Positions 4,348 through 61,501 are shown, counted from the stretch's first letter. The stretch: 64,000 nucleotides of DNA from Candidatus Moraniibacteriota bacterium (GCA_016699875.1 CP064989.1:848525-912524), one strand, 5' to 3'. Made by a program: numbers and translations. Notes: generated from the sequence alone by a model not told the origin.

Positions 4348-4374
4348 GCATTGAACGACAGCGTATGCAAATAG

Positions 4375-7457: not shown

Positions 7458-7463
7458 ATGTTC

Positions 7464-7500
7464 GGACCCTGCAGGATGAATCTTGTAGGGTCTTGATTTT
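7464..7500 (+). terminator. possible hairpin terminator
   Basis: GGACCCT..AGGGTC stem followed by TTGATTTT, upstream of dus. Confidence 0.3.
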
Positions 7501-7530
7501 GCGTTTTACTGAGGAATTGCGTACACTGTC

Positions 7531-8508
7531 TTGACTATGAGGAAGAATTTTTGGCAGGAGTTGCCGAAGCCGTTCTTTGCACTTGCGCCGATGGCGGGAG
7601 TGACGGATACGGTGTTTCGGCAAATTATTGCGCGACGTGCGAAACCGGATGTGTTCTGGACAGAGTTTGTGTCGTGTGACGGAATATGTTCACGCGGGCG
7701 CGAAGCTCTCCTGCGGGATTTTATCTTTACAGAAATCGAGCGGCCGATCGTAGCGCAAGTATTTGGAGCGACGCCGAAACATTTCTACGAGACAGCGCGG
7801 CTCGTTGTTTCGCTTGGATTTGATGGCATCGATATCAATATGGGGTGCCCGGACAAAGCGGTGGTGGCGCAGGGCGCGGGCGCCGCACTCATCCGAACGC
7901 CGGAACTTGCGCGCGATATTATCAGCGCTACGAGAGAAGGTATCATGTCTGCCGGTTCCTCGATGTCTCTTTCGGTGAAGACGCGAACCGGATTCGATCG
8001 CGATGAAGTGGACACCTGGATTCCAACACTGCTCGATATGCAGCTTGACGCGCTCACGATTCACGCGCGGACCAAGAAAGAGCTGTCGGATGTGCCAGCC
8101 CGTTGGGACGATGTCGCGCGAGTGGTTTCGCTCGCGCGAGGTACGGACACGCTTGTCATCGGTAATGGTGATGTGCGCGATCTCGCCGATGCAAAGCAAA
8201 AGGCGAATGAAACGGGCGCCGATGGCGTGATGATGGGTCGCGCAATATTTGGAAATCCGTGGGCATTTGAAAAAAACGGAAAAATTCCAACCGTTCAAGA
8301 AAAAATCCGGGCGCTTGTCGAGCATACGCGCCTCTATGAGGAAACCTGGGGGAGTACCAAGAGTTTCGATCTTATGAAGAAACACTACAAAGCGTATGCG
8401 AACGGCTTTTCGAATGCGTCGGATCTTCGTGTGCAACTGATGCTCTGTCGAGACGCTGATGAAGTGGCGAGTGTTGTTGAAAGTTTTCTACACGCAACAA
8501 CCATATGA
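7531..8508 (+). CDS. dus: tRNA-dihydrouridine synthase (Dus family, TIM barrel)
   Basis: The N-terminal FALAPMAGVTDTVFRQI motif, a conserved Cys in ..NMGCPDKAV.., and the overall 325-aa length fit the DusB/DusA-like family. Confidence 0.85.
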   Translation: MTMRKNFWQELPKPFFALAPMAGVTDTVFRQIIARRAKPDVFWTEFVSCDGICSRGREALLRDFIFTEIERPIVAQVFGATPKHFYETARLVVSLGFDGIDINMGCPDKAVVAQGAGAALIRTPELARDIISATREGIMSAGSSMSLSVKTRTGFDRDEVDTWIPTLLDMQLDALTIHARTKKELSDVPARWDDVARVVSLARGTDTLVIGNGDVRDLADAKQKANETGADGVMMGRAIFGNPWAFEKNGKIPTVQEKIRALVEHTRLYEETWGSTKSFDLMKKHYKAYANGFSNASDLRVQLMLCRDADEVASVVESFLHATTI

Positions 8509-21736: not shown

Positions 21737-22397
21737 GGGCATTGCGACAAGAGCGTTGAATACGACGGAAGTGACATTTGGCATATCGGAACCGTTCAAA
21801 TTTACGGCCGGGCAGTATGTTACTGTGACGTTGCCAACACTCTATCATCTCGCAGAACGGGAACAGTATCGAGAATTCTCTCTTATTTCTCCGCCAGAAG
21901 ACGCATCTCGGCTTTCCATCGTGTTTCGAAACTCCGGAAGTCATTTTAAGCAGGAAATTTTACGAGGAAGAGATATTGGTCGGAATATAAAAGTCTCTCT
22001 TGAAGGGCCAAAGGGGGTGTTTACGTTGTCTCAGGATCTGAGTATGCCAATCGTTTTTCTTGCCGGAGGCATCGGCATCGCGCCCTTTCTTAGCATGATG
22101 CGGCATCTCTCAAACTTGAAAATTTCGGCTGACATCACACTTTTTTACTGTAATCGCAATCGCGAAAGTGCCACGTATCTGGATGAAATTATGAGCTATG
22201 AATTTGTTCGTTGCATCCCTGTGTTCGGCGACTTGTCTCTCACATTGATTGAGTCTCATGCGAAAGAGTATTCGAAGGACGGATTATGGTATGTATCGGG
22301 TCCTCGGGGGATGGTGAGGACAGCTCGTGAGATTCTCACGGCGCTTTCCGTTGAAGACAGATATATAAGATCAGAAGAATTTTCCGGGTATGAGTGA
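21699..22397 (+). CDS. FAD/NAD(P)-binding oxidoreductase, ferredoxin-NADP reductase-like fold
   Basis: An RxYS-type FAD motif (YREFSLIS) and an NAD-binding GGIGIAPF motif are present. The protein is ~230 aa. An internal Met at 21711 is the likely start. Confidence 0.6.
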   Translation: MSNTMGIYAATIEGIATRALNTTEVTFGISEPFKFTAGQYVTVTLPTLYHLAEREQYREFSLISPPEDASRLSIVFRNSGSHFKQEILRGRDIGRNIKVSLEGPKGVFTLSQDLSMPIVFLAGGIGIAPFLSMMRHLSNLKISADITLFYCNRNRESATYLDEIMSYEFVRCIPVFGDLSLTLIESHAKEYSKDGLWYVSGPRGMVRTAREILTALSVEDRYIRSEEFSGYE

Positions 22398-24018
22398 TGA
22401 TTTCCAACTGGCGCAAGAAAACAAGCTTCCAATTGAAGATTGCAGAGCGTTACTGACGGCGGTGAGTCAGGCAGCGCTTGTTTCCGTGACGGATTCTCGC
22501 GGCTCTATAATTTATGCAAACGACACTTTTGTAAAAGTCTCGAAGTATTCCTACGAAGAGCTTATCGGACAGAATCACCGGATCTTGAAATCAGGCGATC
22601 AACCGGATGTGATGTTTGAAGAACTGTGGAGAACGATTTCTTCCGGAAAAGTATGGCGAGGAGAGATTAAGAACAGGGCGAAGGACGGATCATACTATTG
22701 GGTTGATACTTCAATCGCTCCGATACTCGATGCTTCCGGGGTTCCGGAGCGGTATATTGCCGTTCGTTTTCTCATTACGGAGAAGAAGAATTCTGAGGAG
22801 GGAATCATGCAACAGAACGAGGAACTGGAAAAGACTAAGCGCATCATGCTCAACGTGCTCGAAGACGTGCAGGAGGAACGAAGTCGTGCGGAATCGCTTG
22901 CTTCCGATTTGGAGAAATTCAAGGTCGCACTCGACGGGACATCCGATCATGTTGTTATCACCGATCCGAATGGTGTTGCCTTATATGCAAATGCCGGATT
23001 GAAACGGATCACGGGGTTTAGTCCGAAGGAAGTTCTCGGGAAAAAGGTAGGGACGAAAGAGTTGTGGGGCGGGAATATGAATCAGGAATTTTATGAGAAT
23101 CTTTGGCGTGTTATCAAGATTGAAAAAAAACCTTTTGTCGGAGAAATTACTAACACGCGAAAAGATGGGACGCCATACCAGGCACTTTCAAGCATTTCAC
23201 CTATTGTGAACAAGCATGGCACTTTGGAATTTTTTGTCGGTATAGAGCGCGATATCACCAAGGAGAAAGAAATCGATAATGCAAAGACGGAATTTGTGTC
23301 GCTGGCGTCGCACCAACTTCGAACGCCGCTTTCCGCTATCAACTGGTATACGGAAATGCTCTTGTCGGAGGATGCGGGATCGATATCGGATATACAGCGA
23401 GAGTACCTTGAGGAGGTAAGTCACGGAAGTCGGCGTATGGTGGAATTGGTGAATGCTCTGCTCAATGTCTCGAGGATAGAGTTGGGCACATTTGCCATTC
23501 AGCCGGAGCCGACGGATGTTGTAGAGCTGGCGCGTGATGTGCTCAATGAGCTCAAACCGAAGATCTCGGAGAAACAGCTGCATATAAAGGAACAATTTGC
23601 AGAAGATCTTCCAAAAATGCTGATCGATCCGAAACTCACTAGAATTGTCTTTCAGAATCTTCTGACAAATGCGGTGAAATACACGCCGGAACAGGGGAAT
23701 GTCTCGATGTCGATTGCTATGAGTCAAGAAAAGACAAAATTCAGTATTTCTGTTTCAGACACGGGATATGGAATTCCCAAAGAAGATCAGTCTCGCATAT
23801 TTACCAAGTTGTTCCGGGCGTCGAATATCCGAGAGAAGGAAACGGATGGAACGGGATTGGGTCTTTATATCGTCAAGTCCATCATTGAACATTCTGGCGG
23901 AACGGTGACATTTGAGTCGGAAGAGGAAAAGGGAACGACGTTTACGATCGAACTTCCCGTTTCAGGTATGCGTTCGCAGGAGGGAAGTAAGCAAATCGAA
24001 TGGAAAGAAGAGCTTTGA
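22390..24018 (+). CDS. PAS/PAC-domain sensor histidine kinase
   Basis: Two PAS-like regions are present (..IIYANDTFVKVSKYSYEELIGQNHRIL.. and ..VALYANAGLKRITGFSPKEVLGKKV..). The H-box is SHQLRTPLSAINWYTE. The N box and G boxes are present (DTGYGIPKED, GTGLGLYIVKSIIEHSGG). Confidence 0.85.
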   Translation: MSDDFQLAQENKLPIEDCRALLTAVSQAALVSVTDSRGSIIYANDTFVKVSKYSYEELIGQNHRILKSGDQPDVMFEELWRTISSGKVWRGEIKNRAKDGSYYWVDTSIAPILDASGVPERYIAVRFLITEKKNSEEGIMQQNEELEKTKRIMLNVLEDVQEERSRAESLASDLEKFKVALDGTSDHVVITDPNGVALYANAGLKRITGFSPKEVLGKKVGTKELWGGNMNQEFYENLWRVIKIEKKPFVGEITNTRKDGTPYQALSSISPIVNKHGTLEFFVGIERDITKEKEIDNAKTEFVSLASHQLRTPLSAINWYTEMLLSEDAGSISDIQREYLEEVSHGSRRMVELVNALLNVSRIELGTFAIQPEPTDVVELARDVLNELKPKISEKQLHIKEQFAEDLPKMLIDPKLTRIVFQNLLTNAVKYTPEQGNVSMSIAMSQEKTKFSISVSDTGYGIPKEDQSRIFTKLFRASNIREKETDGTGLGLYIVKSIIEHSGGTVTFESEEEKGTTFTIELPVSGMRSQEGSKQIEWKEEL

Positions 24019-31911: not shown

Positions 31912-33879
31912 CTATCGCTCTTGCCCGGGAACGCGGTCCACGTAGAAGATGAATATGGAGTCGCCAGCACGGCCGACCAGCGAGTGCTGTGGAATCCACA
32001 AGTAGTTTATGGATCCTGCTGGTTGCGGTTTGTAAATGCTCTCTTGGTAGAATCCTGCGGAAACGGCATACCAGCCGGGTTCCGGTACGCTGTCGCTGTG
32101 CCAGGATTTGTATTTATTGCCGAGGAAATATTCCGGACTTGATCCGCCGAAGTAGTCGACGCGGATTGTCTGTATCGGCAACGACGTTGGAAAGCTCTTC
32201 CCATCGGTGAGAGCGCGGCATTGGGCTGAGTCGGTTTGGCTGTTGTTGACGCAAAGATTGTAGGTGTCGACCCAGGTTTGCAACCGCTTCGCATCCTGCC
32301 CCCAATCGTAGTTGGAGTCGGTGACATACTTATACCCCTCGGTGTGTCCGCCCATGGCCGTATTGAAATAGGACAGATAGCCCGGATAGGAGAATACCGG
32401 TATGAGGAGTATCCAGCAAGTGAAGAGAAAGATGAATCCTCGCATGATGCTCCAGGTAGTGTGATTGCCGTGGTGGCGCTTCCAATAGTCGAACACGGCT
32501 TTGGTTCCGAGGACGTAGAGGAAAGGAAGGATTGGGAAGAGATGTCTGAAGCCGATATTGAGATTTCCGGTAATACTGAGATAACTGTAGAGCGCAACAA
32601 ATCCGAGCATGGTGTACTGCGCAATATGCGATTGGAATGAGTGTGCGAATATGCCGCTCCATGTTCGCCCGTCTTTTCTGTTCGCATGCGCAACCTTTGT
32701 GATGCGTCGGAGTCCGTAGAGGAGTCCGAAACCGAGTATGGCAAGGAATGGCAACGTAGATTTCATGAGAAAGACAATGGGAAAATAGAGCGAAGTCGCT
32801 TGATTGGAAACCGTGCCAAGAAAGTAATAGGTATTGCCACCGGAGACGCGCGCAAACACCATGAAGACGCCGAGGAAATACTGCGCGAGCGGCTTCATAA
32901 GGGGGATTTCGCTCATTCCAACGATAGTGGATTCGGCGAATCGTCCAATAGCGCGGTCATTGGGGAATTGCGCCCGTGCAATTTCCTGTACGGTTTCTGC
33001 AGACATATTCCAGGTATTTGGCACATAGAGTGCCCAGATGGCGATGAAGCATATTGCGACTGATCCTGCGAATTTGAAGATGAGAGAGAAAAAGAATTTC
33101 CACTTCCACATGCGACGATCTGCTCCTTCAAGAGTGTCCGGAGCGGGTTTTGAGAGCGCATAAAGAAGAACAATGAGTCCGAAGAGCGGGAACAGCGTGA
33201 CGGCTGAGAACTTGGCAAGGTTGGCGAGTCCGAGGAAAACTCCCGAGAGAATTGTGTTTTTCGCAGATGGGTCTTTAAGGAATCTAACGAAAAAATAAAC
33301 GGAAAAGAAAACGAATGCCGCGATGCCGATATCGGTTGTGACGAGATGATCGTGTCCGAGGACATTGGGATCGGCGGCGTAGAGCAAGAGCGCGAAGAGT
33401 CCGGCGACGGTGCCGGCAAGTTCGCGTGTCCATCGAAAGATAGCGAATCCAAGGAAGAGTGCGATGAGAATAATAGGAAGTCTTGCAAAGAATGTCACCC
33501 GGTTTGGATCATTGCCCATGCTGAAAAGGAATTGGTCGCCAAATGTCCACTGTGCGAATCCCCATGATTGCGCCGGTCCTTCCGGATGATTGCTTGGGTC
33601 TACACTCTCATCGCCTCGCGTCCAGAGTGTGCTTGGGACGGGAAATGCCGGCAATGGAGAGATGAGAAGCATGGCGAGTCCGGAGAGGTCTTTGATGAGA
33701 GGAGGATGCTCGGGGTTGATGCGCATATCAAGATAGCGCACGTAGCTGTAGGAAGCGGGGATATGCGCCTTCTCATCCATTGTGGTGGAGTCATCCCAGG
33801 CGAGACGGAGTGATACAGCTGCAAGCGTGACCAGTATCCCAGCAACAAACCATGCGGCGTATTTTTTCAAGAATTCCAT
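31912..33879 (-). CDS. GT-C fold membrane glycosyltransferase, family 39/83-like (PMT/ArnT-like, polyprenyl-phosphate-sugar dependent)
   Basis: The protein is 655 aa with about 11 TM. The N-terminal first-loop region (..DEKAHIPASYSYVRYLDMRINPEHPPLIKDLSG..) resembles the DE-motif loop of PMT_2/ArnT-type enzymes. A large C-terminal extracytoplasmic domain is present. Confidence 0.7.
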   Translation of the reverse strand: MEFLKKYAAWFVAGILVTLAAVSLRLAWDDSTTMDEKAHIPASYSYVRYLDMRINPEHPPLIKDLSGLAMLLISPLPAFPVPSTLWTRGDESVDPSNHPEGPAQSWGFAQWTFGDQFLFSMGNDPNRVTFFARLPIILIALFLGFAIFRWTRELAGTVAGLFALLLYAADPNVLGHDHLVTTDIGIAAFVFFSVYFFVRFLKDPSAKNTILSGVFLGLANLAKFSAVTLFPLFGLIVLLYALSKPAPDTLEGADRRMWKWKFFFSLIFKFAGSVAICFIAIWALYVPNTWNMSAETVQEIARAQFPNDRAIGRFAESTIVGMSEIPLMKPLAQYFLGVFMVFARVSGGNTYYFLGTVSNQATSLYFPIVFLMKSTLPFLAILGFGLLYGLRRITKVAHANRKDGRTWSGIFAHSFQSHIAQYTMLGFVALYSYLSITGNLNIGFRHLFPILPFLYVLGTKAVFDYWKRHHGNHTTWSIMRGFIFLFTCWILLIPVFSYPGYLSYFNTAMGGHTEGYKYVTDSNYDWGQDAKRLQTWVDTYNLCVNNSQTDSAQCRALTDGKSFPTSLPIQTIRVDYFGGSSPEYFLGNKYKSWHSDSVPEPGWYAVSAGFYQESIYKPQPAGSINYLWIPQHSLVGRAGDSIFIFYVDRVPGQER

Positions 33880-33940: not shown

Positions 33941-35626
33941 CTATTGTATCATGATCACTTGGAAATTTTTTTGCGAGGTATATTGGAAGGGAATAGTGGT
34001 AACGGTGGATTTCTTCGGAAGAGTGAGGCGAACCTTTTCGGCGATAGCATCATCCCATTTTTGCGGAATGATAACGGCAGGCGTTTGAATGATCGTGTCC
34101 GGCTTCAGAAATTCGACCGGAGCCCTCTTGGCATCGTGAGTGAGAAAGAGAAATGGCTGGGCGGTAATCGGGAGACCGTTATCAATCATGGTGCCGCCCG
34201 CATTGGCGAGGATATACGCATGTGTATCGGTCGGCAGGGTGTTTATGAAGTATGCCATGGAGGTGAAATCTTCGTTAAAGGCACTTCGGGCATTTTGGTT
34301 GTTGGCGAAAAAGAGAAAGTATTTGCTGACATTCCAGAGGGGAATGCAGGCGAGGACGGTTCCGACAAAGAGTATCATGCCGATTTGTGCGCCCAACTTC
34401 CGTTTTCTGAGCCACTCGCCAAACCACAACAATGGAATGCTCGCGATGAGAAAGACGACCGGCTGAGTGCCGATAGCACGAAGGGCGTGGGGGAGCCCTT
34501 CTGCGGTCAAGAATTCCGGAATGAGCATGGTGAAAAACCATCCGAGAAGAAAGAGGGAAATCATGAGCTCTCGATTTCGTTCGGTATACTTCCATCGTTT
34601 CCGAATGAGAAGCGTGATACGCATGAGAAGGAAAACAAACCCGGCAAGAAACAATATGCCGCTCACGAGGTCAAGAAGCGGATAAGGCGGATAGTTGTGT
34701 CGCCAATTCATATCGCCTACAAAGGTATACTTGATCAGAGAAAGGCTGAGCGTTTTGGCGAGCGTGAGAGCGAAGTGTCCGTGATTGACCGCGGGCGAGA
34801 AAATGGAAATCGATGCCGATCGCGATGAAACATATTCCGGATGCTTGACGAATTCATAGACGAGCGGCAGGGCAGTAATGAGCATGCCGCCAGTGAAGAT
34901 GAGCGCCTGTCTCCAGTAGTGTTTTAAAAACTCTCGATAGGAAGCCATGCATCCGATCGTCACGATGAGGAGAATGAGCGGTGCGACGCGGAAGGCAATA
35001 TACGTATGGAATCCGAGTCCAAAGATGATGCCAGAGATGAGAAATGAGAGGAGACTCTTGGTGCGAAGACCGCGGAAGAAGAAAAAGAACGAAAACGAGA
35101 GAATGAACGGCACCATGATGGCGCGGAAGCCGATCCTTGAAAAGTTAATCGCCCAATAGGAAAAAGTGAGAAGAAAAGCGGAAAAGAGCGCGACGCTACG
35201 TTTGTGCCAGAGTTCTTTGGCGAGCAAATAGATACCGAGCACGGTTGCCGTGCCGAATATCGCCGACCAGAGTTTGAGCGCTGGGATAGTGGCGCCAAAG
35301 AGGAGGAGTGCGAGTGCTTGGAGATTAATGAAGAGTCCTTCTCGCCCGCTGTTGTTGGGGTAGAAAAGCTGATAATCACCGGTTTCATTGGCATGAATGG
35401 CATCGACGCCATTCATCGCTTCGTCGGGATAGAGTCCGGCGGGGAGATGCTCGATATTCCAGAATCGCAAAAAGAACGCGGCTGCCAAAAGCACGACAAG
35501 AACGGAAATGGTTATCAGTTTTTCCGCCGTAAAAAAATGCCCGAAGAAATGCCGTCGCATAATAAATGGAAGTGTTTTGTTTTCGTCTTGACGATTCAAT
35601 TGGAGAAGCGTCGTCGATACGTTCAA
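33941..35626 (-). CDS. GT-C fold membrane glycosyltransferase family 39/83 (ArnT/PMT-like)
   Basis: ..LYPDEAMNGVDAIHANETGDY..FYPNNSGREGLF.. is the conserved first periplasmic loop with DE motif of the ArnT/PMT_2 family. It has multiple TM. Internal Met (MRRHFFGHFF, start near 35560) is a likely alternative start. Confidence 0.75.
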   Translation of the reverse strand: MNVSTTLLQLNRQDENKTLPFIMRRHFFGHFFTAEKLITISVLVVLLAAAFFLRFWNIEHLPAGLYPDEAMNGVDAIHANETGDYQLFYPNNSGREGLFINLQALALLLFGATIPALKLWSAIFGTATVLGIYLLAKELWHKRSVALFSAFLLTFSYWAINFSRIGFRAIMVPFILSFSFFFFFRGLRTKSLLSFLISGIIFGLGFHTYIAFRVAPLILLIVTIGCMASYREFLKHYWRQALIFTGGMLITALPLVYEFVKHPEYVSSRSASISIFSPAVNHGHFALTLAKTLSLSLIKYTFVGDMNWRHNYPPYPLLDLVSGILFLAGFVFLLMRITLLIRKRWKYTERNRELMISLFLLGWFFTMLIPEFLTAEGLPHALRAIGTQPVVFLIASIPLLWFGEWLRKRKLGAQIGMILFVGTVLACIPLWNVSKYFLFFANNQNARSAFNEDFTSMAYFINTLPTDTHAYILANAGGTMIDNGLPITAQPFLFLTHDAKRAPVEFLKPDTIIQTPAVIIPQKWDDAIAEKVRLTLPKKSTVTTIPFQYTSQKNFQVIMIQ

Positions 35627-35630: not shown

Positions 35631-35639
35631 TGGTATAAT
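35631..35639 (+). promoter_or_regulatory. candidate extended -10 element (TGnTATAAT) upstream of the 1100-aa gene
   Basis: tggtataat lies about 35 nt upstream of ATG 35673. No clear -35 element. Confidence 0.25.
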
Positions 35640-35672
35640 TATACCACGAATTATTTTTTCTTTGCGTTCGAT

Positions 35673-38600
35673 ATGAAAGCCGAAGTTGTTTCTTTGGATT
35701 CTTCTGAGGCAACTCTCTCTCCCGGAGAGAGAGTGTTTAATCTTCTGCCGGAAACTGTTCAGGGTAAACTTTCCGGTCGCTATAATAGGGAAGAAATAGC
35801 GAGGCGAGTACTTCGGGAGCTTGGAGAAGGAAAACGAGATGACAGATCTCTACATAATGGAGTTGTGTCAGCTATTTACCTTGACAAAGATATTCCATCT
35901 TCAATCAAGAAGGGTCTTTTGAGACATCTGGGCAGTATCGTTCCAGCGCAGGAAAATGAGACTTTGAAATTCTTTAAAAAGGTGAATAAAAACTTGGAAA
36001 ACCAACAAGTGCGTAAAGGAGACGTGCGGCAGCAGAATTCAACTTCAGCGGATACGCACAGGCATGACGATGACGCTATTGATCGGGAGGTTCGAGCGGT
36101 TGGCGCGGATATGCACCCCGATCATAGTGAAAAACTTGAACAAAAAAAGTATATTGCAAGAGAAAGAGCTTCCAAAAAGTCAAAGCAAGCAAAAGTGGCA
36201 AGTGTTCCAGGGGAATCCCATGACAGCAGAAAACCTTCAAACCTCGAAGGGAATGTTCAGGGTGACGCATCTGTATCCGAAGATCTTCCTGATGACCAAA
36301 AAGTAAGTCCGCCAAACGAGGGGTATTTCGGCTCGCTTGATTACATAGAAGCAATAGATGATCAAAGTCTGGATGCTTCAGTCGCGCAGCAAGAGGGAAT
36401 TGATTGGGAGGGTGTCAAGAAGGATTTTGATGAAGAAGGGAAAAGGATACAGGAGGAACGTGCGCGTTCAGTGAAGTTCAATCGATTGGATGTACAGGAA
36501 ACGTTCGACCAAGGAATGGAGCAATTGAAAAATCGTGACAAACTTGCTGAACGTTTTCGTGATGTTAAAAGCTTCGATGAGCTCTTAGTGCTTCTCAATG
36601 ATCCGGAGTTTCCCGGAATTCAGGGCTCGAAGCAGTTCTACTCCGGTGATGACTTGAAAAGAATAATTGCCATAGCTCGAGAAACTGGAGCGACGAAATT
36701 TGTCACACGCTCTCATGGATTTCTTGATATGGCGGAGCGGCTCTTGCGCGAGGAGAAAGAAGGAAAGATTGGCGCATTGAAAGAGGATAATATTGTGGAA
36801 GGTTTTGGTGTTGTGAACCGTACAGCTCCCGGTGTTTTTGAAAGAGTTCCGGATGCGCTGAATGAATTGCATATTGAGAAAGAGAATGATCTTTCTCGCG
36901 CAGTCGAATCTTTGGAAGAGCTTCAGGAGAGGGTGGATCGATTGAAAAATGATGCAGATGCTGCAAGAAATCTCTTGTTCTCTTGTCGACGGAAGAATGG
37001 TGATCGATGGAAGGAGGTGAAAAAGTTTTTTGCTTTTCCAAAGGAAAAGGAAGCTCCAAAACCAGTGATTGAAGAATGGGAAATGTTGGAGGTGGCTTGG
37101 AAATATAGACTTACCCTCTACAAGGATGCTCGGGTGGAGTTGGCAAAGCGCCAGGTTGCAGAAGGTGGTTTGCAAGGGAGGGATGTCGGTGCTGTTATGG
37201 CGGAGACGATTCGGGAGTTGGATTTTCGCGGAAGAGTGGAAAACTACAATGCGTGGAAAGATGCGGCGTGGAGTGGCAAGAAGGATTCATGGCTTCTTCG
37301 GGCAGTCGGTCGGGCGAAAGATTGGGGCGAATCGTATCGAAAGCTTGACTGGAAGAAGCGCGCGGCGATTTCCGCGCTGGTGATAGGCGCGGGCGCGACC
37401 GGCGTTGCCGTAGGATCAGTCGGATTGATTGGATTGGGTGCGGCAAGTGGCGTGGCGGTCCGATTGCTGGGGTCATACGCCGCCGGGCGCGGACTTTATG
37501 AATACCTGGAGGGTCGTGCCAACAAAGATACGGTGAAGTTTCAGGAGGCAGCACTTTCTCATGTCGAGCAATCCGGCGATATTGGTTTCCTCGATCATCG
37601 TACGCGGGATTATGCCGATCGAATACGGAAGGATTTCGAACAGATGACGAGGAAGAATCGGAAACGGGTGTGGGCGGGCGTAGCTGCCGGAGCATTACTT
37701 TTTGCGGGCGGGACGGCGCTCTCGCTCGCGCATGCGGCAAGTGCGGCGGAGCGGGTAGTGGACGGTGGAAGTGGCAAACAAGTTGTACAAGATGCTCTTA
37801 CAGCGAGAGGTGCTGAGATTCCGGAGATATCAAAAAATGTTCCTGTTGTTCCGAGTGTTGTCGAAGCGAGCGTACCTGCATCGGATACGAGTGGGCTTAT
37901 GCCGGATTCGGTTGGATCGGGGGTGGTTGACCATGGGATATCGGTTGAGGCTGCCGGGGACATTGGGAAAAGTTTTGAGAATATGGAAATAGCTGCCGTT
38001 CCAAAGGGCGGGAGTTTCGAGAAGGTTCTCATTGAGAAGCTTACGGGAGTCGGGATTCCTAAAGAAGAAGCAGGGAAGCTGGCGCATCGGGCGATGCTTG
38101 ACTTGGCGGAGAAATCAGGAAAGTCGTTTGAGATATTTAATCATATCCAACCAGGTGCGGAGATTCAGTATGAGATAGGTCCGGACAAATCCCTCTCTGT
38201 GTTTGGTGTGACCAGGGAAGCTGGCGGTCGGGTGATTCAGCGGATGGCGGGTTCTGCCCTGGAGGGAAGCCATGCTTCGCCGGATGTGCAAGTCCTCGAA
38301 GAGGTTCTGTCTCCGCCTTTGCAGCCGACTGATGCGGTCTCTGTTCCCTCTGTTCAGACGCCTCCTTTGAGCTCGTTTCCAAAGATGCCCGAAGTAAACC
38401 TGGAGTCTCCACCGGATATTTTTGATCGCGTGCTTCCGGAAGTGCCACAAATTCCTCCTCTTGAAGACACACTGAGCGGGAATGTTCCTCTTGATACTTC
38501 AGTATCTGCACATCCTCTTGAATCTATTTCGACAAACATCCCTGCCCCGGCGCATGATTTCGAGTCGCTTGACCTTTCTGTTCCCGGCGGGGAATATCTG

Positions 38601-38975
38601 AAGAATATCGGTTCGGTAGTAAAGGAAAGGCTGACATTCCTTCCGCTTTCCGAAACACAGAAAGATCTTATAGAGAACATCTTTAGTGCGAGAATTCCGA
38701 CGGCGGGCACTGAGCCGACAACGAGTTCCGTGTTGTTTGTAAGAGATGCTCTTGGAAAAGCTCTTTTCTCGTCGGGTGATGTGGAACGCTGGATGCAAGC
38801 TGATATCGAACAAGTGCGAGAGAGGGTGAATAAGGCAATCTATGCCGGCATTGTTCGTATTGGTGGCGAGTCGCTACGCATTGGAAAAATGGTCGCGGAG
38901 GGTGAGACGGTAGAGGGTTGGCTGACAAAAATGGCGCGACATATCCTTACACATCCGATTGAACCTGCGAAATAA
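35673..38975 (+). CDS. large hypothetical membrane protein (1100 aa): acidic or disordered N-terminal half, two Gly/Ala-rich TM segments, P/S-rich C-terminal region
   Basis: It is a long uninterrupted ORF. TM-like glycine-zipper segments are AISALVIGAGATGVAVGSVGLIGLGAASGVAV and VWAGVAAGALLFAGGTALSLAHAA. No enzymatic motif was recognised. Confidence 0.6.
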   Translation: MKAEVVSLDSSEATLSPGERVFNLLPETVQGKLSGRYNREEIARRVLRELGEGKRDDRSLHNGVVSAIYLDKDIPSSIKKGLLRHLGSIVPAQENETLKFFKKVNKNLENQQVRKGDVRQQNSTSADTHRHDDDAIDREVRAVGADMHPDHSEKLEQKKYIARERASKKSKQAKVASVPGESHDSRKPSNLEGNVQGDASVSEDLPDDQKVSPPNEGYFGSLDYIEAIDDQSLDASVAQQEGIDWEGVKKDFDEEGKRIQEERARSVKFNRLDVQETFDQGMEQLKNRDKLAERFRDVKSFDELLVLLNDPEFPGIQGSKQFYSGDDLKRIIAIARETGATKFVTRSHGFLDMAERLLREEKEGKIGALKEDNIVEGFGVVNRTAPGVFERVPDALNELHIEKENDLSRAVESLEELQERVDRLKNDADAARNLLFSCRRKNGDRWKEVKKFFAFPKEKEAPKPVIEEWEMLEVAWKYRLTLYKDARVELAKRQVAEGGLQGRDVGAVMAETIRELDFRGRVENYNAWKDAAWSGKKDSWLLRAVGRAKDWGESYRKLDWKKRAAISALVIGAGATGVAVGSVGLIGLGAASGVAVRLLGSYAAGRGLYEYLEGRANKDTVKFQEAALSHVEQSGDIGFLDHRTRDYADRIRKDFEQMTRKNRKRVWAGVAAGALLFAGGTALSLAHAASAAERVVDGGSGKQVVQDALTARGAEIPEISKNVPVVPSVVEASVPASDTSGLMPDSVGSGVVDHGISVEAAGDIGKSFENMEIAAVPKGGSFEKVLIEKLTGVGIPKEEAGKLAHRAMLDLAEKSGKSFEIFNHIQPGAEIQYEIGPDKSLSVFGVTREAGGRVIQRMAGSALEGSHASPDVQVLEEVLSPPLQPTDAVSVPSVQTPPLSSFPKMPEVNLESPPDIFDRVLPEVPQIPPLEDTLSGNVPLDTSVSAHPLESISTNIPAPAHDFESLDLSVPGGEYLKNIGSVVKERLTFLPLSETQKDLIENIFSARIPTAGTEPTTSSVLFVRDALGKALFSSGDVERWMQADIEQVRERVNKAIYAGIVRIGGESLRIGKMVAEGETVEGWLTKMARHILTHPIEPAK

Positions 38976-39007
38976 TCCGATTTTTCTCATTCTTAAAACC
39001 TTCTTCT

Positions 39008-39346
39008 ATGTCGCTCTCTATCGAACAGGTCAAGGCCGATCTCATAAAAGAATTCGGATTGGAAACGCTGCCGGATGCAAAACAGCAGGAGCTTTTGGAT
39101 ATGATGACGGAAACGGTCATGAAGCAAATATTTCTCGCGCTTGGGGAAAAGATGGGGGATGACGGCGCGGACGAATTCGAGGCGCTGATGAAAGCGGGTG
39201 ATCAGGAGAAGGTAGAGGCATTTATCAAGCGCTTTGTGCCGGATCCGGATGCCTTTGTGAAGGGAATTGTTGCGGAGTTTCGTGATGCGATGAAGAACGG
39301 AGGAATCCCGGCCGGTCCTGAGAATATGGAGAAGTCCGGTGAGTAG
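39008..39346 (+). CDS. hypothetical acidic protein (112 aa)
   Basis: ORF with an ATG start. No family recognised. Confidence 0.4.
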   Translation: MSLSIEQVKADLIKEFGLETLPDAKQQELLDMMTETVMKQIFLALGEKMGDDGADEFEALMKAGDQEKVEAFIKRFVPDPDAFVKGIVAEFRDAMKNGGIPAGPENMEKSGE

Positions 39347-39916
39347 ATGTGTTTGTGTAGTAGTTTTTCTTTAGAGAGAAATTTTATGCTACGGGAAGAT
39401 AGAATGGAACATATGGGACAGCCGAAAGCAGGGAATGTTTTTGATTATGCCGGGTCTCTGGATGACGAGAGTGACTTTGAAGCTTTGAAGAGGGAAAATG
39501 AGGCTGAGCGCGGTGAGAAATTGCAAATGAAAAGGAATTCGGAAATGAAAACTCTTCAAGAAGATTTCGATCGAGATTCCGAAAAGATACAACGGGAGCG
39601 TGCTCTCGTGCGGAGAACTTCAGAGAGAAAGGTTCTCCAAGAGAAAGTTGAGAGGTTGAAAATGGAATATCATGAGAGTATGAAGCGGCGGAATGAGTAT
39701 GCCGAGGCGGAGAGAAATCGCGGGTTTATGAAAAGAATGTGGGAGAAACTTTTTGTGCCTCGAAATGCCTCATCTCCGGATCGTTTGAATGTTATTGCGC
39801 TTGATACACGTGTTCGACAGAGTCTTGCTATGTATCGAGCTGCCAAGAAAGAACTTGAAGATGTTGAACGGTTGATCTCAGCGGAGAAACCAGAGCCACA
39901 AATGAAAGGGAGCTAA
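39347..39916 (+). CDS. hypothetical coiled-coil protein
   Basis: K/E/R-rich heptad-like sequence. It abuts the previous gene. Internal Met (MLREDRMEH) is the likely start. Confidence 0.4.
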   Translation: MCLCSSFSLERNFMLREDRMEHMGQPKAGNVFDYAGSLDDESDFEALKRENEAERGEKLQMKRNSEMKTLQEDFDRDSEKIQRERALVRRTSERKVLQEKVERLKMEYHESMKRRNEYAEAERNRGFMKRMWEKLFVPRNASSPDRLNVIALDTRVRQSLAMYRAAKKELEDVERLISAEKPEPQMKGS

Positions 39917-39939
39917 TTTTTTAGATTGACGATATATTT

Positions 39940-40401
39940 ATGCCTGAAGAAAAGAGTATCATCGGCGTGCCGGAAGATGTGGCGGAGAAGTTGAAATCGG
40001 ATGATTCGGAGAGTGTTCGAGATATATTGGATGTTCCGGGGAGACGATCGGAGTTGTGGGTGGACGGGAAGATGGAAAAGCATGCCGACGCTCACGAAAG
40101 CGCCTCGCAGTATGAGAAGAAATTGGGCGAAGTACAGGCGGCACCATCCACATCGACATCGGCCTCAATGTTGAAGGATGATGCGGTAAAATTCGATGCC
40201 GATGCAATTCGTCATATGGAGGATGCGGTAGCGCGAGTGCAGAAGCTTCTTGAGCTGGCCCGTATCAAAGGAGTGGCACATGCGGTGTCGGTAGCGGAGC
40301 ATATCGATGCGTATACCTTGGATCTTACACATGATCGTATGGCAGATGAACTTGCGGATGAACTTCGCAAGCAGGGGATGCTTGATGATGCAACAGAGTA
40401 G
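39940..40401 (+). CDS. hypothetical acidic protein (153 aa)
   Basis: ORF only. Confidence 0.4.
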   Translation: MPEEKSIIGVPEDVAEKLKSDDSESVRDILDVPGRRSELWVDGKMEKHADAHESASQYEKKLGEVQAAPSTSTSASMLKDDAVKFDADAIRHMEDAVARVQKLLELARIKGVAHAVSVAEHIDAYTLDLTHDRMADELADELRKQGMLDDATE

Positions 40402-40429
40402 TTGATGATGAGCGGCATGTCATTTCACT

Positions 40430-42931
40430 ATGGAGACGACTTTTGATTTCAATCTGATTCTTATCCCACTTCTTTTTGTGGTCGGAGCGCTTGCTGCGCT
40501 TTCGGGAATCTTGCTGTTGATTCGGATGATTCTGTTTTTCAGATCACGGATCAATCGATCGCTTAATATGGACCTGGAAACGATTCAGGTGTCGAAGCCG
40601 GCTGAGCGAAAAGGGGAATCGTCGCGCCCGGATGAATGGAAGGAGGAAATTGGTGCAATGGAACAGCTTTTGGTGTCGCTCCAATCCTTCCGCGGGATGA
40701 AACACGGTTTTGATGTGTTCTCCGGTATGAAGCGGTTTTTCTATGGTCCGCCAGCCATTGTGTTTGAGGTGGCGAATCCGGAGAGAGATGAGGAGATGAC
40801 TTTTTTTCTTTCCATGCCGAGAAAGTTTCGTGAGAGTATCGAGAAACAGGTACACAGCTTTTTCCCAAACGCATTCGTTGAAAAGGTGAAGGACTACACT
40901 ATTTTCTCGCCGAAAGGATTCTCGTCCGTTTCAATACTTTCGCTTTCGAAAAGTCCGGCACTTCCCATACGGACGTATGAGTCACTCGATGTGGATCCGC
41001 TCAATGAGATTTCAAACTCTTTGAGTAAGCTCTCCAAAGAGGGTGAAGGCGCAGCGATGCAAATCATTCTCTCGCCGGCGGGCACCTCATGGCGTTCGGA
41101 GGGGCGGCGTATCGCACATGAAATGCAGCAGGGGAAGCGTTTGGCGGATGTGTATCACGAATCGCCGTTTTTGCACTTTCTCGGATCGGCATTCGCCTCT
41201 CTTTTTCATGCGGCGGTTCATGCGAACAAGCCTGCTGAACCGTTGAATGACAAGTCGCTTGTCCAGTTGACTCCGGAAGAGCAGGAGCTGGTGAAGTCAA
41301 TCGAGCGCAAGGTATCGAAGGCGGCGTTTCATGCCAATGTCCGATTGCTTGCCTCAGCTGCTTCTCAGGAGCGGGCAGATCAGATTCTCGCAACGATGGA
41401 GAATGCGTTTGCGCAGTTTGAATATCCGGACGCAAATCTTTTCCGGACGCGCCGTTTGCGGGATCGGTCGGCGAAGCCGGTGATTTTCGACTACATTTTC
41501 CGAGCATTTCGCCCGGAAACATCGTTTCTCTTGGGCGTTGAAGAGGTGGCGAGTCTTTTTCATTTTCCCATATCGACAACTGAGACGCCGAATATAAAAT
41601 GGCAGAAAGCCGGTTCCGCGCCGCCGCCGCCGAATATTCCGAAAGACGGCATCCTCTTGGGACACAATGATTATCGCGGCGTGAAGACGGATATCCGTTT
41701 AGCTGTTGCCGATCGTCGGCGACATCTCTACTGTATCGGACAAACCGGTGTTGGAAAGTCGGTATTCTTGCAGGAGATGGCGAAGCAAGACGTGCGTGAG
41801 GGACGGGGACTGTGCTTTATTGATCCGCATGGCGACGCAGTGCAAGATATCTTAGCGGCAGTGCCTCGGGAACGCGCCGAAGATGTCGTCTATTTCGATC
41901 CTGCTGATACGGAGCGCCCGTTCGGACTTAATATGCTTGAGTTCTCTCGGCCGGAAGAAAAGACTTTCGTCGTAAACGAGATGATCAATATTTTCGGGAA
42001 ACTTTACGACTTGAAACAGACGGGCGGACCGATGTTTGAGCAGTATATGCGAAATGCCATGCTTCTCATCATGGAAGACCCGACGACAGGTTCGACGCTC
42101 ATGGAGATATCGAAGGTGCTTGCTGACCCGGATTTCCGTCGGATGAAGCTCGACCGATGCAAGAATCCGGTAGTGTATGACTTCTGGGTGAAGGAGGCAG
42201 AAAAAGCAGGCGGTGAAGCGTCGCTTGCGAATATGGTGCCCTACATCACGTCGAAGCTCACGCCTTTCGTGGCAAATGACATGATGCGCCCGATTATCGC
42301 GCAACAGAAGAGTACTCTTGATTTCCGCACGCTCATGGATGAGAAGAAGATCATCTTACTCAATCTCTCAAAGGGAAAACTCGGGGAAATTAACAGTCAC
42401 TTGCTCGGCATGGTCGTGGTGGGGAAGATCTTAATGGCAGCGCTCTCGCGGGCGGATATCCCCGAAGCGGACCGAAAAGATTTCTCGCTCTACATCGATG
42501 AGTTTCAGAATGTAACTACGGACTCTATCGCGCAAATCCTCTCCGAGGCGCGAAAATACGGGCTCAATCTCATTATTGCGCACCAATTTATCGGACAGCT
42601 CTCGGAGGATATCTCGAAAGCGGTCTTTGGTAACGTGGGCTCAATGGTTTCATTTCGAGTTGGTCCCGAAGATGCGGAATTTCTTGAGAAGCAATTCGCA
42701 CCGATCTTCTCAGCTCGCGATCTGGTGAATGTTGACAATTACCGTGCTTTCGTCCGTCTTCTCATCAATAATCAGTCTACGAAACCGTTCAATCTCTCAG
42801 TCTATCCGCCAACATCCGGCGATGAGGAGCTTGCCGGGCATCTCAAGGAACTCTCGCGTCTTCGCTTTGGCCGCGACGCCGATATCGTCAATCACGAGAT
42901 AATGGAGCGGACGAAGCTGGCAGCTGCGTAG
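40430..42931 (+). CDS. type IV coupling protein-like ATPase (VirD4/TraD/TraG family) fused to an N-terminal TM + uncharacterised domain (833 aa)
   Basis: N-terminal TM is ILIPLLFVVGALAALSGILLLIRMILFF. Walker A GQTGVGKS is followed about 25 aa later by FIDPHGD (compare F-plasmid TraD GATGTGKS..IVDPNGD). Walker B-like YIDEFQN and a ..ARKYGLNLIIAHQ.. motif are present. The N-terminal ~430 aa are homologous to gene 58071..59369. The C-terminal ATPase is homologous to 59417..61501. Confidence 0.7.
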   Translation: METTFDFNLILIPLLFVVGALAALSGILLLIRMILFFRSRINRSLNMDLETIQVSKPAERKGESSRPDEWKEEIGAMEQLLVSLQSFRGMKHGFDVFSGMKRFFYGPPAIVFEVANPERDEEMTFFLSMPRKFRESIEKQVHSFFPNAFVEKVKDYTIFSPKGFSSVSILSLSKSPALPIRTYESLDVDPLNEISNSLSKLSKEGEGAAMQIILSPAGTSWRSEGRRIAHEMQQGKRLADVYHESPFLHFLGSAFASLFHAAVHANKPAEPLNDKSLVQLTPEEQELVKSIERKVSKAAFHANVRLLASAASQERADQILATMENAFAQFEYPDANLFRTRRLRDRSAKPVIFDYIFRAFRPETSFLLGVEEVASLFHFPISTTETPNIKWQKAGSAPPPPNIPKDGILLGHNDYRGVKTDIRLAVADRRRHLYCIGQTGVGKSVFLQEMAKQDVREGRGLCFIDPHGDAVQDILAAVPRERAEDVVYFDPADTERPFGLNMLEFSRPEEKTFVVNEMINIFGKLYDLKQTGGPMFEQYMRNAMLLIMEDPTTGSTLMEISKVLADPDFRRMKLDRCKNPVVYDFWVKEAEKAGGEASLANMVPYITSKLTPFVANDMMRPIIAQQKSTLDFRTLMDEKKIILLNLSKGKLGEINSHLLGMVVVGKILMAALSRADIPEADRKDFSLYIDEFQNVTTDSIAQILSEARKYGLNLIIAHQFIGQLSEDISKAVFGNVGSMVSFRVGPEDAEFLEKQFAPIFSARDLVNVDNYRAFVRLLINNQSTKPFNLSVYPPTSGDEELAGHLKELSRLRFGRDADIVNHEIMERTKLAAA

Positions 42932-43011
42932 CCATTGACACATTATACGACTTCATGGTATACATATCAGTAGCACTTTTTGAACCAAGAATTTAGAGAG
43001 GATAATGCATC

Positions 43012-43335
43012 ATGAACAATGCATTGGTAGTGTTGGTGGTTGCAGTGTCATGGGCGGTTCTTTTCTTTGCAGAGCAAGAAGCGATGCAAGTGTGGTCATG
43101 GATGATCATTGCGTCTGCTATTTTTGCGATGACTTCCCTCGGCTTTGTCTTTCTGGGATTCTTCGCTCGCCGAGGAAGGAGATACCCGTTCTTTATTGCG
43201 GCGGCCATCCCTCTGTTCCTTTCAGTTGCCCTCATGTTTGTCGGGCATGAGGAACACGAAGATCTTCTTGGTAAGATACGCGCTGAGAGGAGAATTCAAG
43301 AGAAAATATACATGATCCAACTTGGACGGATGTGA
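43012..43335 (+). CDS. hypothetical small membrane protein (3 hydrophobic segments)
   Basis: VVLVVAVSWAVLFFA, WMIIASAIFAMTSLGFVFLGFF and FFIAAAIPLFLSVALMFVG. Confidence 0.4.
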   Translation: MNNALVVLVVAVSWAVLFFAEQEAMQVWSWMIIASAIFAMTSLGFVFLGFFARRGRRYPFFIAAAIPLFLSVALMFVGHEEHEDLLGKIRAERRIQEKIYMIQLGRM

Positions 43336-59416: not shown

Positions 59417-61501
59417 ATGTCTGACAATATTACCTATTTCGCCAAGACGAACTTCCGGAACGAAGATCGGGTTTTCGGTATCAAAGCCGATGATCGTCGT
59501 CGGCATATGTATGTCATTGGGAAAACGGGCATGGGGAAGACTAATATGCTCGAGAATCTGGTTATTCAAGATATTCAACACGGACACGGCGTCGCTTTCA
59601 TTGATCCGCATGGCGATACGGCGGAGAAGCTGATTCGCGCTATTCCGCCGTCGCGCGTCAATGACGTCATTTACTTCAATCCGTCAGATCAGGATTTCCC
59701 GGTAGCATTCAATGTGATGGAACATGTGTCGGCGGAGTACCGGCACCTGGTTGCTTCCGGCTTGGTCGGCGTTTTCAAGAAGATTTGGGCGGACTCTTGG
59801 GGACCGCGCCTCGAGTATATCTTGCGCAATGCGATTTTGGCGCTTCTGGAATATCCGGGGAGCACGCTTTTGGGTGTGATGCGCATCCTGGTTGACAAGG
59901 AGTATCGCAAACGTGTCGTCGACAAGGTGACGGATCCGGTCGTGAAGTCATTTTGGGTTGATGAATATACCAAGTGGAATGACCGCGTGTTGCAGGAAGT
60001 GATTGCACCGATCCAAAACAAAGTCGGGCAATTCCTCTCGAGTTCGCTCATCCGAAATATTGTCGGGCAGACCGTCTCGTCATTCGATGTTCGCGATATC
60101 ATGGACCGTCGGAAGATTCTTATCATGAATCTTTCGAAGGGGCGTATCGGGGAAGACAATAGTGCTCTTATCGGCGCAATGATGATTACCAAGATACAGC
60201 TTGCGGCGATGGGGCGTGTGGACATTCCGGAAGATGATCGCCAGGACTTCTATCTTTATGTTGATGAGTTTCAGAATTTCGCAACGGAGTCATTTGGTAA
60301 TATTCTTTCCGAGGCGCGGAAATATCGGCTGAATTTGATTCTTGCAAACCAGTATATTTTGCAAATCGAAGAATCGGTTCGAGATGCGATCTTTGGCAAT
60401 ACGGGAACGATTATCAGTTTTCGTGTTGGAGCGACTGATGCGGAATTCCTTGAAAAAGAGTTCTCCCCGATTTTCTTGGCAACGGATATTGTAAACTTGG
60501 AAAAGTACCATATCTATCTCAAGCTCATGATTGACGGCATCTCCGGGGATGCTTTCAGTGCGACGACGCTTCCTCCGATCGATCTGCCGGAGAGTGATGA
60601 AAATGCTGAGAAGGTGGTTCGTATTTCTCGGGAGCGGTACGCGGCCAAGAAGCAAGATGTCGAAGATAAAATTCGCCGGTGGACTGGTATCTTGACTGAA
60701 GAGGAGCGGCAGAATTTTGAAGAGCGAATGCGAATGCGCGCCGAAACGACTCTTGCTAAAAAGGCTCCCGTTGAAATCGATGGCTCTCTGTCGACGCCGC
60801 CTTCCTCATCGGTGCGCCAGCAGGAATTCTTCAGGAGCTCTTCTCATGACAACCGATCTACTCCTGATCGAATATCTCGTCATGAATCCCCCTCGCGCAT
60901 ACCAACCGGTCATCCTTATCGGAATTCCGCTCTTCCAAATGAACTGACGATTTCCTCGGATTCGCCGTCTCTAACGGGAACGACGAGCGCTTCCATGCAA
61001 TCAGCTGATCGATTGCGACGAGACCCATCTGAGCATTCGGGAAATGAGATATCATCTCCCAGTTCTCGACCTCTGTACAAATCCGTATGTGCAGTATGTG
61101 GTGTCGAGATTGACGTTCCGTTCAAGCCCGATGGGAAGCGTCCGACATTTTGTCGAGAGCACTTCAAAAGTTTTCAGAAGACGATTGCTCGTACGAGAAC
61201 AGGCGTGGACATGCAGTCCTCCCAAGCATCGCCCGAGAAACGTTCGGAGCATGTGCGGGACGATCATTCCGAGGAAAATCCAGCGTACTCCCGCAGAGAA
61301 GATGCGCCATCGGAAGTGTCGCGCGAACGCCATTCGTTTGCTCCAAAGGCGTATGTCTCGATGGAGACGCCGCTTTCTTTGGGGCAGATGCAATATATCG
61401 CTCCAAAACCTTTTAAGCGTAGCAAGGAGAAAATCGATTTGGGAGAAGTTCGCAGGATTCTTTCGTCCGAACGAACCGCTGATGGCCATTCAGATTCTTA
61501 G
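59417..61501 (+). CDS. type IV coupling protein-like ATPase (VirD4/TraD/TraG family) with S/R-rich C-terminal tail containing a zinc-ribbon-like motif
   Basis: Walker A GKTGMGKT, then FIDPHGD. Walker B-like YVDEFQN. ..ARKYRLNLILANQ.. is present. Beyond about aa 480 the sequence is low-complexity S/P/R-rich. It contains CAVCGVEIDVPFKPDGKRPTFCREHF, a C-x2-C..C-x2-H pattern. Confidence 0.7.
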   Translation: MSDNITYFAKTNFRNEDRVFGIKADDRRRHMYVIGKTGMGKTNMLENLVIQDIQHGHGVAFIDPHGDTAEKLIRAIPPSRVNDVIYFNPSDQDFPVAFNVMEHVSAEYRHLVASGLVGVFKKIWADSWGPRLEYILRNAILALLEYPGSTLLGVMRILVDKEYRKRVVDKVTDPVVKSFWVDEYTKWNDRVLQEVIAPIQNKVGQFLSSSLIRNIVGQTVSSFDVRDIMDRRKILIMNLSKGRIGEDNSALIGAMMITKIQLAAMGRVDIPEDDRQDFYLYVDEFQNFATESFGNILSEARKYRLNLILANQYILQIEESVRDAIFGNTGTIISFRVGATDAEFLEKEFSPIFLATDIVNLEKYHIYLKLMIDGISGDAFSATTLPPIDLPESDENAEKVVRISRERYAAKKQDVEDKIRRWTGILTEEERQNFEERMRMRAETTLAKKAPVEIDGSLSTPPSSSVRQQEFFRSSSHDNRSTPDRISRHESPSRIPTGHPYRNSALPNELTISSDSPSLTGTTSASMQSADRLRRDPSEHSGNEISSPSSRPLYKSVCAVCGVEIDVPFKPDGKRPTFCREHFKSFQKTIARTRTGVDMQSSQASPEKRSEHVRDDHSEENPAYSRREDAPSEVSRERHSFAPKAYVSMETPLSLGQMQYIAPKPFKRSKEKIDLGEVRRILSSERTADGHSDS

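Follow-up and report, generated by a model that had tools for sequence, protein, structure and literature searches.

A run of six genes (g1 to g6; Table 1) was analysed in a 64-kb chromosomal window, the whole stretch of DNA under study, from a member of Candidatus Moranbacteria (Patescibacteria/candidate phyla radiation, CPR). The conserved core of this run appears to be a two-gene unit, consisting of a membrane-anchored ATPase of the VirD4/TrwB-VirB4 clade (g5) and a small acidic, putatively cytoplasmic partner (g4). In our tentative reading, the pair is an orphan coupling-protein-type translocation motor with g4 as its dedicated cytoplasmic adaptor, joined in Moranbacteria by an acquired, variable surface-protein cassette of the giant membrane protein g1 and the DUF5663 protein g2. 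For comparison, 84 Moranbacteria loci were compiled (the window and L001-L083); their open reading frames (ORFs) were called and screened using profiles of the window proteins. A further 80 loci came from a metagenome scan that started from distant ATPases (37-44% identical to the seed).

In g5, an N-terminal transmembrane (TM) helix (amino acids (aa) ~8-44) is followed by a roughly 350-aa alpha/beta domain (~50-380) and a P-loop domain, in which Walker A (GQTGVGKS, 437-444) and Walker B (LYIDE, 687-691) are both intact. The initial annotation had described the product as a fused ATPase resembling type IV coupling proteins (T4CPs), and this was borne out by the combination of a TM helix, the N-terminal domain and a T4CP-type P-loop domain. 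Precomputed matches to DUF8128 (PF26449) were found for homologues 64-93% identical to g5; the Pfam scan of g5 itself gave none. In that scan, TrwB_AAD_bind (26.8 bits, cut-off 20.5) and TraG-D_C (23.1 bits, cut-off 22) were matched, T4SS-DNA_transf stayed below its cut-off (13.7 vs 20.1 bits), and the VirB4-specific profiles CagE_TrbE_VirB and AAA_10 gave no match. The best NCBIfam matches were TraD and VirD4-like models, and the VirB4-specific TIGR00929 scored 13.3 bits against a cut-off of 643. Among PDB sequences, a profile search best matched TrwB (5.7e-6) and DotL (3e-4). Foldseek with an AlphaFold2 model of g5 returned full-length TrwK/VirB4 as the best match (3e-10), followed by Cag-beta and HerA, and PDB entries 8dol and 7ovb also appear among the structural matches. 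As modelled, the nucleotide-binding domain is similar to that of solved coupling proteins. Because of these sequence-profile and structural matches, membership of g5 in the VirB4/VirD4 clade is secure. A defence-system search of the cluster returned only generic HerA and mad8 ATPase matches, and a defence-system reading was discarded.

The ATPase is under unusually strong constraint. Among 80 Moranbacteria species representatives its identity ranges from 58 to 96%, and it is 93% identical to a protein of a Candidatus Moraniibacteriota metagenome-assembled genome (MAG); no match to the exact sequence is on record. Compared with eight relatives, identity was 62-96% for the ATPase, 27-70% for holB and 0-75% for g1, so that the ATPase is more conserved than holB.

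g4 combines a variable acidic N-terminus with a conserved helical C-terminal domain of ~65 aa that carries an LDxxHD motif in the alignment. A homologue stands directly upstream of the ATPase gene in 82 of the 84 Moranbacteria loci. The same arrangement was found in 19 of the 80 distant metagenome loci, where g4 often abuts or overlaps the ATPase start, and all 19 belong to the ATPase subfamily nearest to the Moranbacteria type. g4 is an obligate neighbour of the ATPase, and its family was previously undescribed; translational coupling of the two genes is likely. Searches of Pfam and the PDB assigned g4 to no family. Matches to designed helical proteins and to ribosomal protein S20 were treated as noise.

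The initial annotation had treated all six genes as one unit. Conservation of order and orientation across Moranbacteria was observed for g1, g2, g4 and g5; g3 and g6 fell outside it. g2 lies upstream of g4 in 66-67 of the 84 loci, g1 homologues hold the same position in 63 (profile search; shared core aa ~400-850), and the g1/g2 cassette is present in about 75% of Moranbacteria loci. On the upstream side, PMT_2 genes on the minus strand were found in 58 of the 60 loci whose upstream sequence reaches 8 kb or more. On the downstream side, the genes that follow in the window were present in one of the 59 loci with at least 6 kb of downstream sequence.

g1 and g2 are lost and duplicated together. 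Both are absent from L052, L061, L074 and L080, in which the PMT_2 gene abuts g4. An extra g1-g2 pair is located downstream of the ATPase in L050 (12647-14536 onward) and L123 (about 5667-7687), and this joint duplication indicates that the pair behaves as a mobile or duplicable cassette. In five further loci (L070, L071, L075, L082, L083), g1 and g2 are replaced directly upstream of g4 by an unrelated family of giant proteins (1344-1750 aa). Joint loss, joint duplication and the occupation of the same slot by an alternative giant family argue that the slot beside the ATPase is selected.

Among the 80 metagenome loci, g1 and g2 were detected only in five or six Moranbacteria-like ones. The other g4-positive metagenome loci have a divergent PMT_2 gene upstream and a GtrA-like gene and dnaX downstream; PMT_2 is divergent from the g4-ATPase pair in the non-Moranbacteria loci L105, L141, L155 and L162. 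The link between the motor and genes for lipid-linked glycosylation thus recurs outside Moranbacteria. Taken together, the co-conservation of four genes and the presence of the g4-ATPase pair outside Moranbacteria make a functional unit centred on the ATPase credible. As a separate observation, the g4-ATPase pair of L141, L156, L105, L155 and L162 is located between the divergent PMT_2 gene and a GtrA-like flippase gene, which is followed by dnaX.

g1 is a fast-evolving protein, 43% identical to its counterpart in CP064974 (L086), with 93% for the ATPases of the same pair. A word-indexed search gave only 13 close homologues. The N-terminal 350 aa and the C-terminal part differ even among close relatives; aa 1-350 are charged and lineage-specific. 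The conserved core (aa ~400-850) comprises a helical region, two hydrophobic segments and a small beta/alpha domain (~770-850). The two Gly/Ala-rich membrane segments of the initial annotation were recovered at aa 563-601 and 666-692. Both are rich in Gly, Ala and Ser, a property conserved in ~60 homologues (median fractions 0.51 and 0.44). One glycine-zipper pattern of the form (G/A/S)xxxGxxx(G/A/S) was found (AGATGVAVG, 573-581), together with three GxxxG motifs (577, 589, 669), all inside the hydrophobic segments. The description of the N-terminal half as acidic and disordered was overstated: aa 1-562 contain 107 D+E vs 100 K+R and are in part predicted to be helical, and aa 1-570 have an isoelectric point (pI) of 6.05. 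A P/S-rich stretch does exist (aa 870-960; P 21%, S 12%). It is a linker and not the terminal tail that had been proposed, since a conserved helical C-terminal domain (~973-1093) follows it.

The hydrophobic segments of g1 have K/R-rich flanks (K or R at six of 18 positions ahead of the first segment and at 14 of 64 in the loop between the two), in contrast to the acidic C-terminal part. If the first segment, 39 residues long, is a helical hairpin, both the N-terminal half and the loop should face the cytoplasm under the positive-inside rule, which would leave the last 408 residues, acidic and P/S-rich, outside the cell. No Pfam, NCBIfam, PHROG or PADLOC match and no PDB fold match was obtained for the g1 family, so that g1 did not turn out to be a member of a known adhesin family. 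Foldseek of a g1 model against the PDB gave nothing with E < 1. A LysM-like domain suspected by eye at aa 775-845 gained no support, as neither a Pfam match nor a Foldseek match with E < 1 was found for it. Among the giant proteins that replace g1, that of L070 has a C-terminus similar to those of the g1-type proteins in L013 and L027, which points to mosaic evolution of the giant proteins.

The three small proteins had been annotated as acidic or coiled-coil and without a recognisable family. Acidity was found for g2 (pI 4.41) and g4 (pI 4.73); g3 is basic (pI 8.47). The lack of a known family holds for g4 and not for g2, which matches DUF5663 in Pfam (27.9 bits, cut-off 23.7), as do 38 of 39 members of its family. 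A g2 profile gave weak matches to GpsB N-terminal domains (E 0.005-0.09) with a common E-x-x-x-FL-x-x-x-x-x-Y pattern. The RGY loop motif of the GpsB/DivIVA N-terminal domain is absent from g2, and DivIVA was not among the top families in Pfam scans of the individual members; the likeness to GpsB is therefore uncorroborated and is taken as a lead only.

g3 and g6 are not part of the conserved cluster. No g3 homologue was found in 83 related genome loci, and g3 sits in a ~550-bp insertion relative to L004, the closest species representative, which is without g3. A 171-aa gene at the same place in CP064974 is 55% identical, which marks g3 as a real but lineage-restricted gene, found only in the window genome and in CP064974-like genomes. 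This alignment begins at Met14 of g3, so that the true start is likely Met14 (39386) and not 39347. g6 was found by jackhmmer only in the window and in L004, and has no similarity to a 137-aa protein with three TM segments in L002.

A candidate extended -10 element had been proposed ahead of g1, and such an element (TGGTATAAT) was read directly from the sequence (Table 1). The pattern TGnTATAAT occurs only three times in the whole window, both strands included. The element is embedded in a perfect 16-bp palindrome, TGGTATAATTATACCA (35631-35646), which gives an extended -10 on each strand, one directed toward g1 (plus) and one toward the divergent PMT_2 gene (minus). Upstream of g1 in L004, L086 and L001, the extended -10 is kept despite a g1 identity of ~36-44%; in L001 the palindrome is a symmetric variant, TGATATAATTATATCA. 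Conservation of the element while g1 diverges argues for a function, and we infer that it acts as a promoter. Similar palindromes adjoin the PMT_2 start in L007, L026, L049, L050 and L062. The palindrome might serve as a promoter in both directions, or as the operator of a dimeric regulator. The putative g1 promoter was missed by a consensus sigma-70 scan, as it lacks a -35 match. In addition, a perfect 10-bp stem (ACTCTCTCTC/GAGAGAGAGT) with a 3-nt loop was noted at 35712-35734, 40 nt inside the g1 coding sequence. This stem may not be conserved, as the encoded peptide differs in L004.

All six ORFs were located at the annotated coordinates, on the plus strand. The spacing is tight as claimed, with intergenic gaps from g1 to g6 of 32, 0, 23, 28 and 80 nt, and a terminator scan found no intrinsic-terminator-like sites between the six genes. 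The coordinates of the cluster and of related features are listed in Table 1.

Table 1. Features of the g1-g6 locus and related elements, with positions counted from the first nucleotide of the window.
Feature	Position	Strand	Description
Extended -10 TGGTATAAT	35631-35639	+	34 nt 5' of the g1 ATG
g1	35673..38975	+	1100-aa fast-evolving membrane protein
g2	39008..39346	+	112-aa acidic helical protein, Pfam DUF5663
g3	39347..39916	+	basic coiled-coil-like ORF, lineage-restricted, outside the conserved cluster
g4	39940..40401	+	153-aa acidic protein, ATPase neighbour
g5	40430..42931	+	833-aa membrane-anchored ATPase
g6	43012..43335	+	107-aa protein, three predicted TM segments, outside the conserved cluster
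PMT_2 (GT-C) glycosyltransferase pair	31912-33879, 33941-35626	-	both PMT_2 by Pfam; divergent from g1
t2	59417..61501	+	694-aa soluble T4CP-type ATPase, paralogue of g5

The wider g5 family comprises 22,454 representatives (50% clustering, E up to 1e-3), of which 5,903 have E up to 1e-30 and many match over the full length; the names of the distant clusters are mostly empty. Members occur on haloarchaeal, Sulfolobus and Streptomyces plasmids, and g5 matches phrog_5156 over its full length (9.1e-82). The Bacillus subtilis plasmid NZ_OX419568 encodes a full-length homologue of 913 aa, with an alignment spanning aa 108-798; after it come genes for a replication-relaxation family protein, TcpC, TcpE and an AAA_10 VirB4-like ATPase. 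The replication-relaxation gene is a putative relaxase by annotation and has no Pfam match. This homologue occupies the coupling-protein position of a Tcp/ICEBs1-like conjugation operon. In Bacillus phage G (L084, JN638751; 2770-8334), gp153 (TrbL_4, VirB6-like), gp155 (P-loop_TraG/AAA_10, VirB4-like) and gp156 (a DUF8128-type ATPase) are encoded one after another as a T4SS-like trio (T4SS, type IV secretion system). The separate VirB4-like ATPase beside the family member on the plasmid and in phage G supports the label of a coupling protein for the g5 family, and not that of a VirB4. Other Bacillus phages (SP-10, SPO1-like, Bastille-like) carry the DUF8128-type ATPase alone. In L144, a distant metagenome locus, a homologue of phage G gp155 (3985-5745; phmmer E 9e-62) lies ~2 kb upstream of the DUF8128-type ATPase, which is a rare arrangement.

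Compared with the T4CPs VirD4, TrwB, TraD, DotL and Cag-beta, g5 has the same N-terminal membrane anchor and P-loop domain with helical insertion. It differs by the additional N-terminal alpha/beta domain (DUF8128 in close homologues) and by one predicted TM helix instead of the usual two. Its gene is chromosomal, in a housekeeping-like setting where no relaxase, VirB4 or channel genes were found nearby, and it has a private partner in g4. With VirB4 (TrwK), g5 shares the layout of an N-terminal domain and a C-terminal ATPase in ~800 aa. It differs in lacking VirB4 profile matches and in belonging to a family whose members coexist with a separate VirB4-like ATPase.

A second T4CP-type ATPase of the window, t2, is 41% identical to g5 over aa 417-830 (the P-loop domain). 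It has neither a TM helix nor the N-terminal domain, and its C-terminal tail is disordered and carries a CxxC-x17-CxxC zinc finger. In L094, L100, L103 and L106, a t2-type paralogue that has kept the N-terminal domain stands in tandem directly after the g5-type gene. This arrangement suggests that the two motors work together.

For the proposed mechanism, homology suggests that the ATPase would form a ring on the cytoplasmic side of the membrane. There it would use ATP to recruit a macromolecular substrate and drive it toward a translocon. Small acidic proteins bind coupling proteins in several systems (CagZ and Cag-beta, IcmS/IcmW and DotL, TraM and TraD), and by analogy g4 would be an adaptor or regulator of the ATPase. 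Adaptors of this kind (CagZ, IcmS/IcmW/LvgA, TraM) are small, mostly acidic, helical and cytoplasmic, a likeness that g4, and possibly g2, may share; sequence and profile comparisons of g4 and g2 with CagZ, IcmS/IcmW/LvgA and TraM gave no similarity. The analogy draws on what is established for these systems and on the structural matches to 8dol and 7ovb. In Moranbacteria, the cassette would have been inserted between ancestral PMT_2 genes and g4. For g1, the prediction is a charged, helical N-terminal half in the cytoplasm and 400 variable, P/S-rich C-terminal residues on the outside of the cell. g1 would be the client or membrane partner of the motor and would display a variable surface module, with g2 as its candidate chaperone or adaptor. 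g1 may also be O-glycosylated by the adjacent PMT_2 enzymes, whose genes appear to share the palindromic divergent promoter with g1. A stronger form of this proposal is that the ATPase and g4 make up an autonomous, coupling-protein-derived machine that works without a VirB4-type T4SS and is near-essential in Moranbacteria and related Parcubacteria. Such a machine would serve contact with host cells by installing or exporting g1 and the alternative giant family as hypervariable, glycosylated surface proteins. We consider this extended version unlikely.

Several observations weigh against a translocation motor that includes the cassette. The conserved block does not end at g1 and runs upstream through the two PMT_2 genes, an ftsQ-like gene and holB. 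Gene order alone is therefore no proof of a single apparatus, and some of it may reflect inheritance instead of selection. g1 and g2 are missing from several lineages in which g4 and the ATPase persist, and all 80 genome loci come from one lineage. Single-sequence phmmer searches with Bacillus and phage T4SS proteins as queries, an insensitive test, found no VirB4, VirB6, TcpC/E or relaxase anywhere in the 64-kb window or, in the Moranbacteria loci, up to 10 kb from the ATPase; none was recognised among the large ORFs of the window either. Equivalog cut-offs of the NCBIfam models were far from reached by g5 (TIGR03743, 48.4 bits vs 366; NF045973, 25.5 vs 250). The AlphaFold2 models are mediocre for g5 (mean predicted local distance difference test (pLDDT) 59.5, with 75-89 in the N-terminal domain) and poor for g1 (aa 380-1100, mean pLDDT 46.9). 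Of the membrane-spanning apparatus suggested by the initial annotation, the part that stands is a credible functional unit centred on the ATPase; a single apparatus is not proven by the order of the genes.

The main rival explanation divides the locus into two unrelated units held together by inherited order, with g1, together with g2, as a surface glycoprotein O-glycosylated by the adjacent PMT_2 enzymes, and g4 and the ATPase as a module functionally unconnected to g1. The block through both PMT_2 genes, the ftsQ-like gene and holB, conserved in 58 of 60 loci, fits this, as do the putative palindromic divergent promoter common to g1 and the PMT_2 gene, the extracellular appearance of the P/S-rich stretch of g1, and the lineages that retain PMT_2, g4 and the ATPase without g1 or g2. 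Yet every locus with g1 and g2 has them between PMT_2 and g4, tightly spaced and in the same direction as the ATPase. Their extra copies in L050 and L123 again adjoin the ATPase, and the second giant family in the same slot of five loci suggests that the position itself is selected. We regard the division into two units as somewhat unlikely. A distinctly less probable alternative is a DNA motor acting for the cell itself in the manner of FtsK/SpoIIIE, Streptomyces TraB or archaeal CedB. It would segregate the chromosome when the cell divides, or take up or export DNA, and g4 would bind DNA or regulate the motor. A housekeeping role of this kind is suggested by the very high conservation of the ATPase, and the ftsQ-like, holB or dnaX neighbours and the zinc finger on t2 would agree with it. 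However, g5 has no FtsK_SpoIIIE match in Pfam, by both sequence and structure it is closest to coupling proteins and VirB4, not to FtsK or HerA, and no DNA-binding motif is recognisable in g4. As coupling proteins themselves handle DNA, this explanation overlaps with that of the translocation motor.

Two further explanations were given little weight. Small acidic helical proteins encoded beside a membrane ATPase would also be expected if g2 and g4 were secreted substrates under a type VII-like logic, in which a membrane ATPase of the FtsK/HerA class acts with small helical clients and a large membrane component. This is very improbable, as the WxG motif is absent from both g2 and g4, the ATPase has one P-loop domain vs three in EccC/EssC, Pfam and NCBIfam scans detected no EssB, EsaA or EccB/D homologues, and a match to EccE3 was weak and came from a mediocre model. 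Finally, the full-length match to phrog_5156 and the homologues on plasmids and in phages could indicate a remnant of a conjugative element or prophage. The cluster, however, is found at one and the same chromosomal site, flanked by the same housekeeping genes, in at least 58 species, the composition of the window is uniform, the ATPase is under stronger constraint than holB, and no relaxase, TcpC, TcpE, VirB4 or VirB6 homologue was found in the window or flanks. On the basis of the conserved chromosomal synteny and the absence of relaxase and T4SS genes from the window and flanks as searched, a mobile-element origin was rejected as hardly credible.

Elsewhere in the window, RNase J, uvrA, uvrC, type IV pilus genes, mreB, murA and many glycosyltransferases are encoded, as are holB and the ftsQ-like gene. 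Downstream of the cluster, genes for a Wzx-type flippase, tmk and rtcB follow. Of the pilus genes, pilB (T2SSE) and pilC (T2SSF, plus an SH3_3 domain) lie at 14912-18021 onward, with several small ORFs, possible pilins, after them, and a PAS histidine kinase is encoded at 22390-24018. Rfam and tRNA scans of the window returned only a distant tRNA-Leu. Many of the MAG records with a Moranbacteria-type locus (L004-L083) are titled 'uncultured Bdellovibrionales' or 'Micavibrio sp.' and look mislabelled (bulk submissions).

VirD4-like genes of Patescibacteria have been surveyed before. In 2,918 genomes, 5,713 such genes were counted, only 148 of them near virB4 (PMC12102498), and it was suggested that those away from virB4 may have been exapted, with their role left open (Quinonero-Coronel et al. 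2025; PMC12102498). As far as the covered sections of that paper go, g5 and t2 fit its picture of orphan t4cp genes, with about two VirD4-like genes per genome, rarely near virB4. The same sections contain no description of a DUF8128-type architecture, of g4, of a DUF5663/giant-protein cassette or of a linkage to PMT_2/GtrA. Full-text literature searches returned no papers on DUF8128 or DUF5663. Judged against these sections, the abundance of VirD4-like genes away from virB4 is already known, and the g4 family, the g1/g2 cassette, the DUF8128 architecture and the PMT_2/GtrA link are new.

The locus gives handles on the orphan VirD4-like genes: a defined TM-DUF8128-P-loop subfamily, an obligate partner (g4), the g1/g2 cassette and the link to GT-C glycosyltransferases. 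If the ATPase is only the remote coupling protein of the known T4SS, g4, g2 and g1 would be candidate adaptors or substrates of that essential system. If the motor serves surface display or host interaction, episymbiotic bacteria would have put conjugation machinery to a new use.

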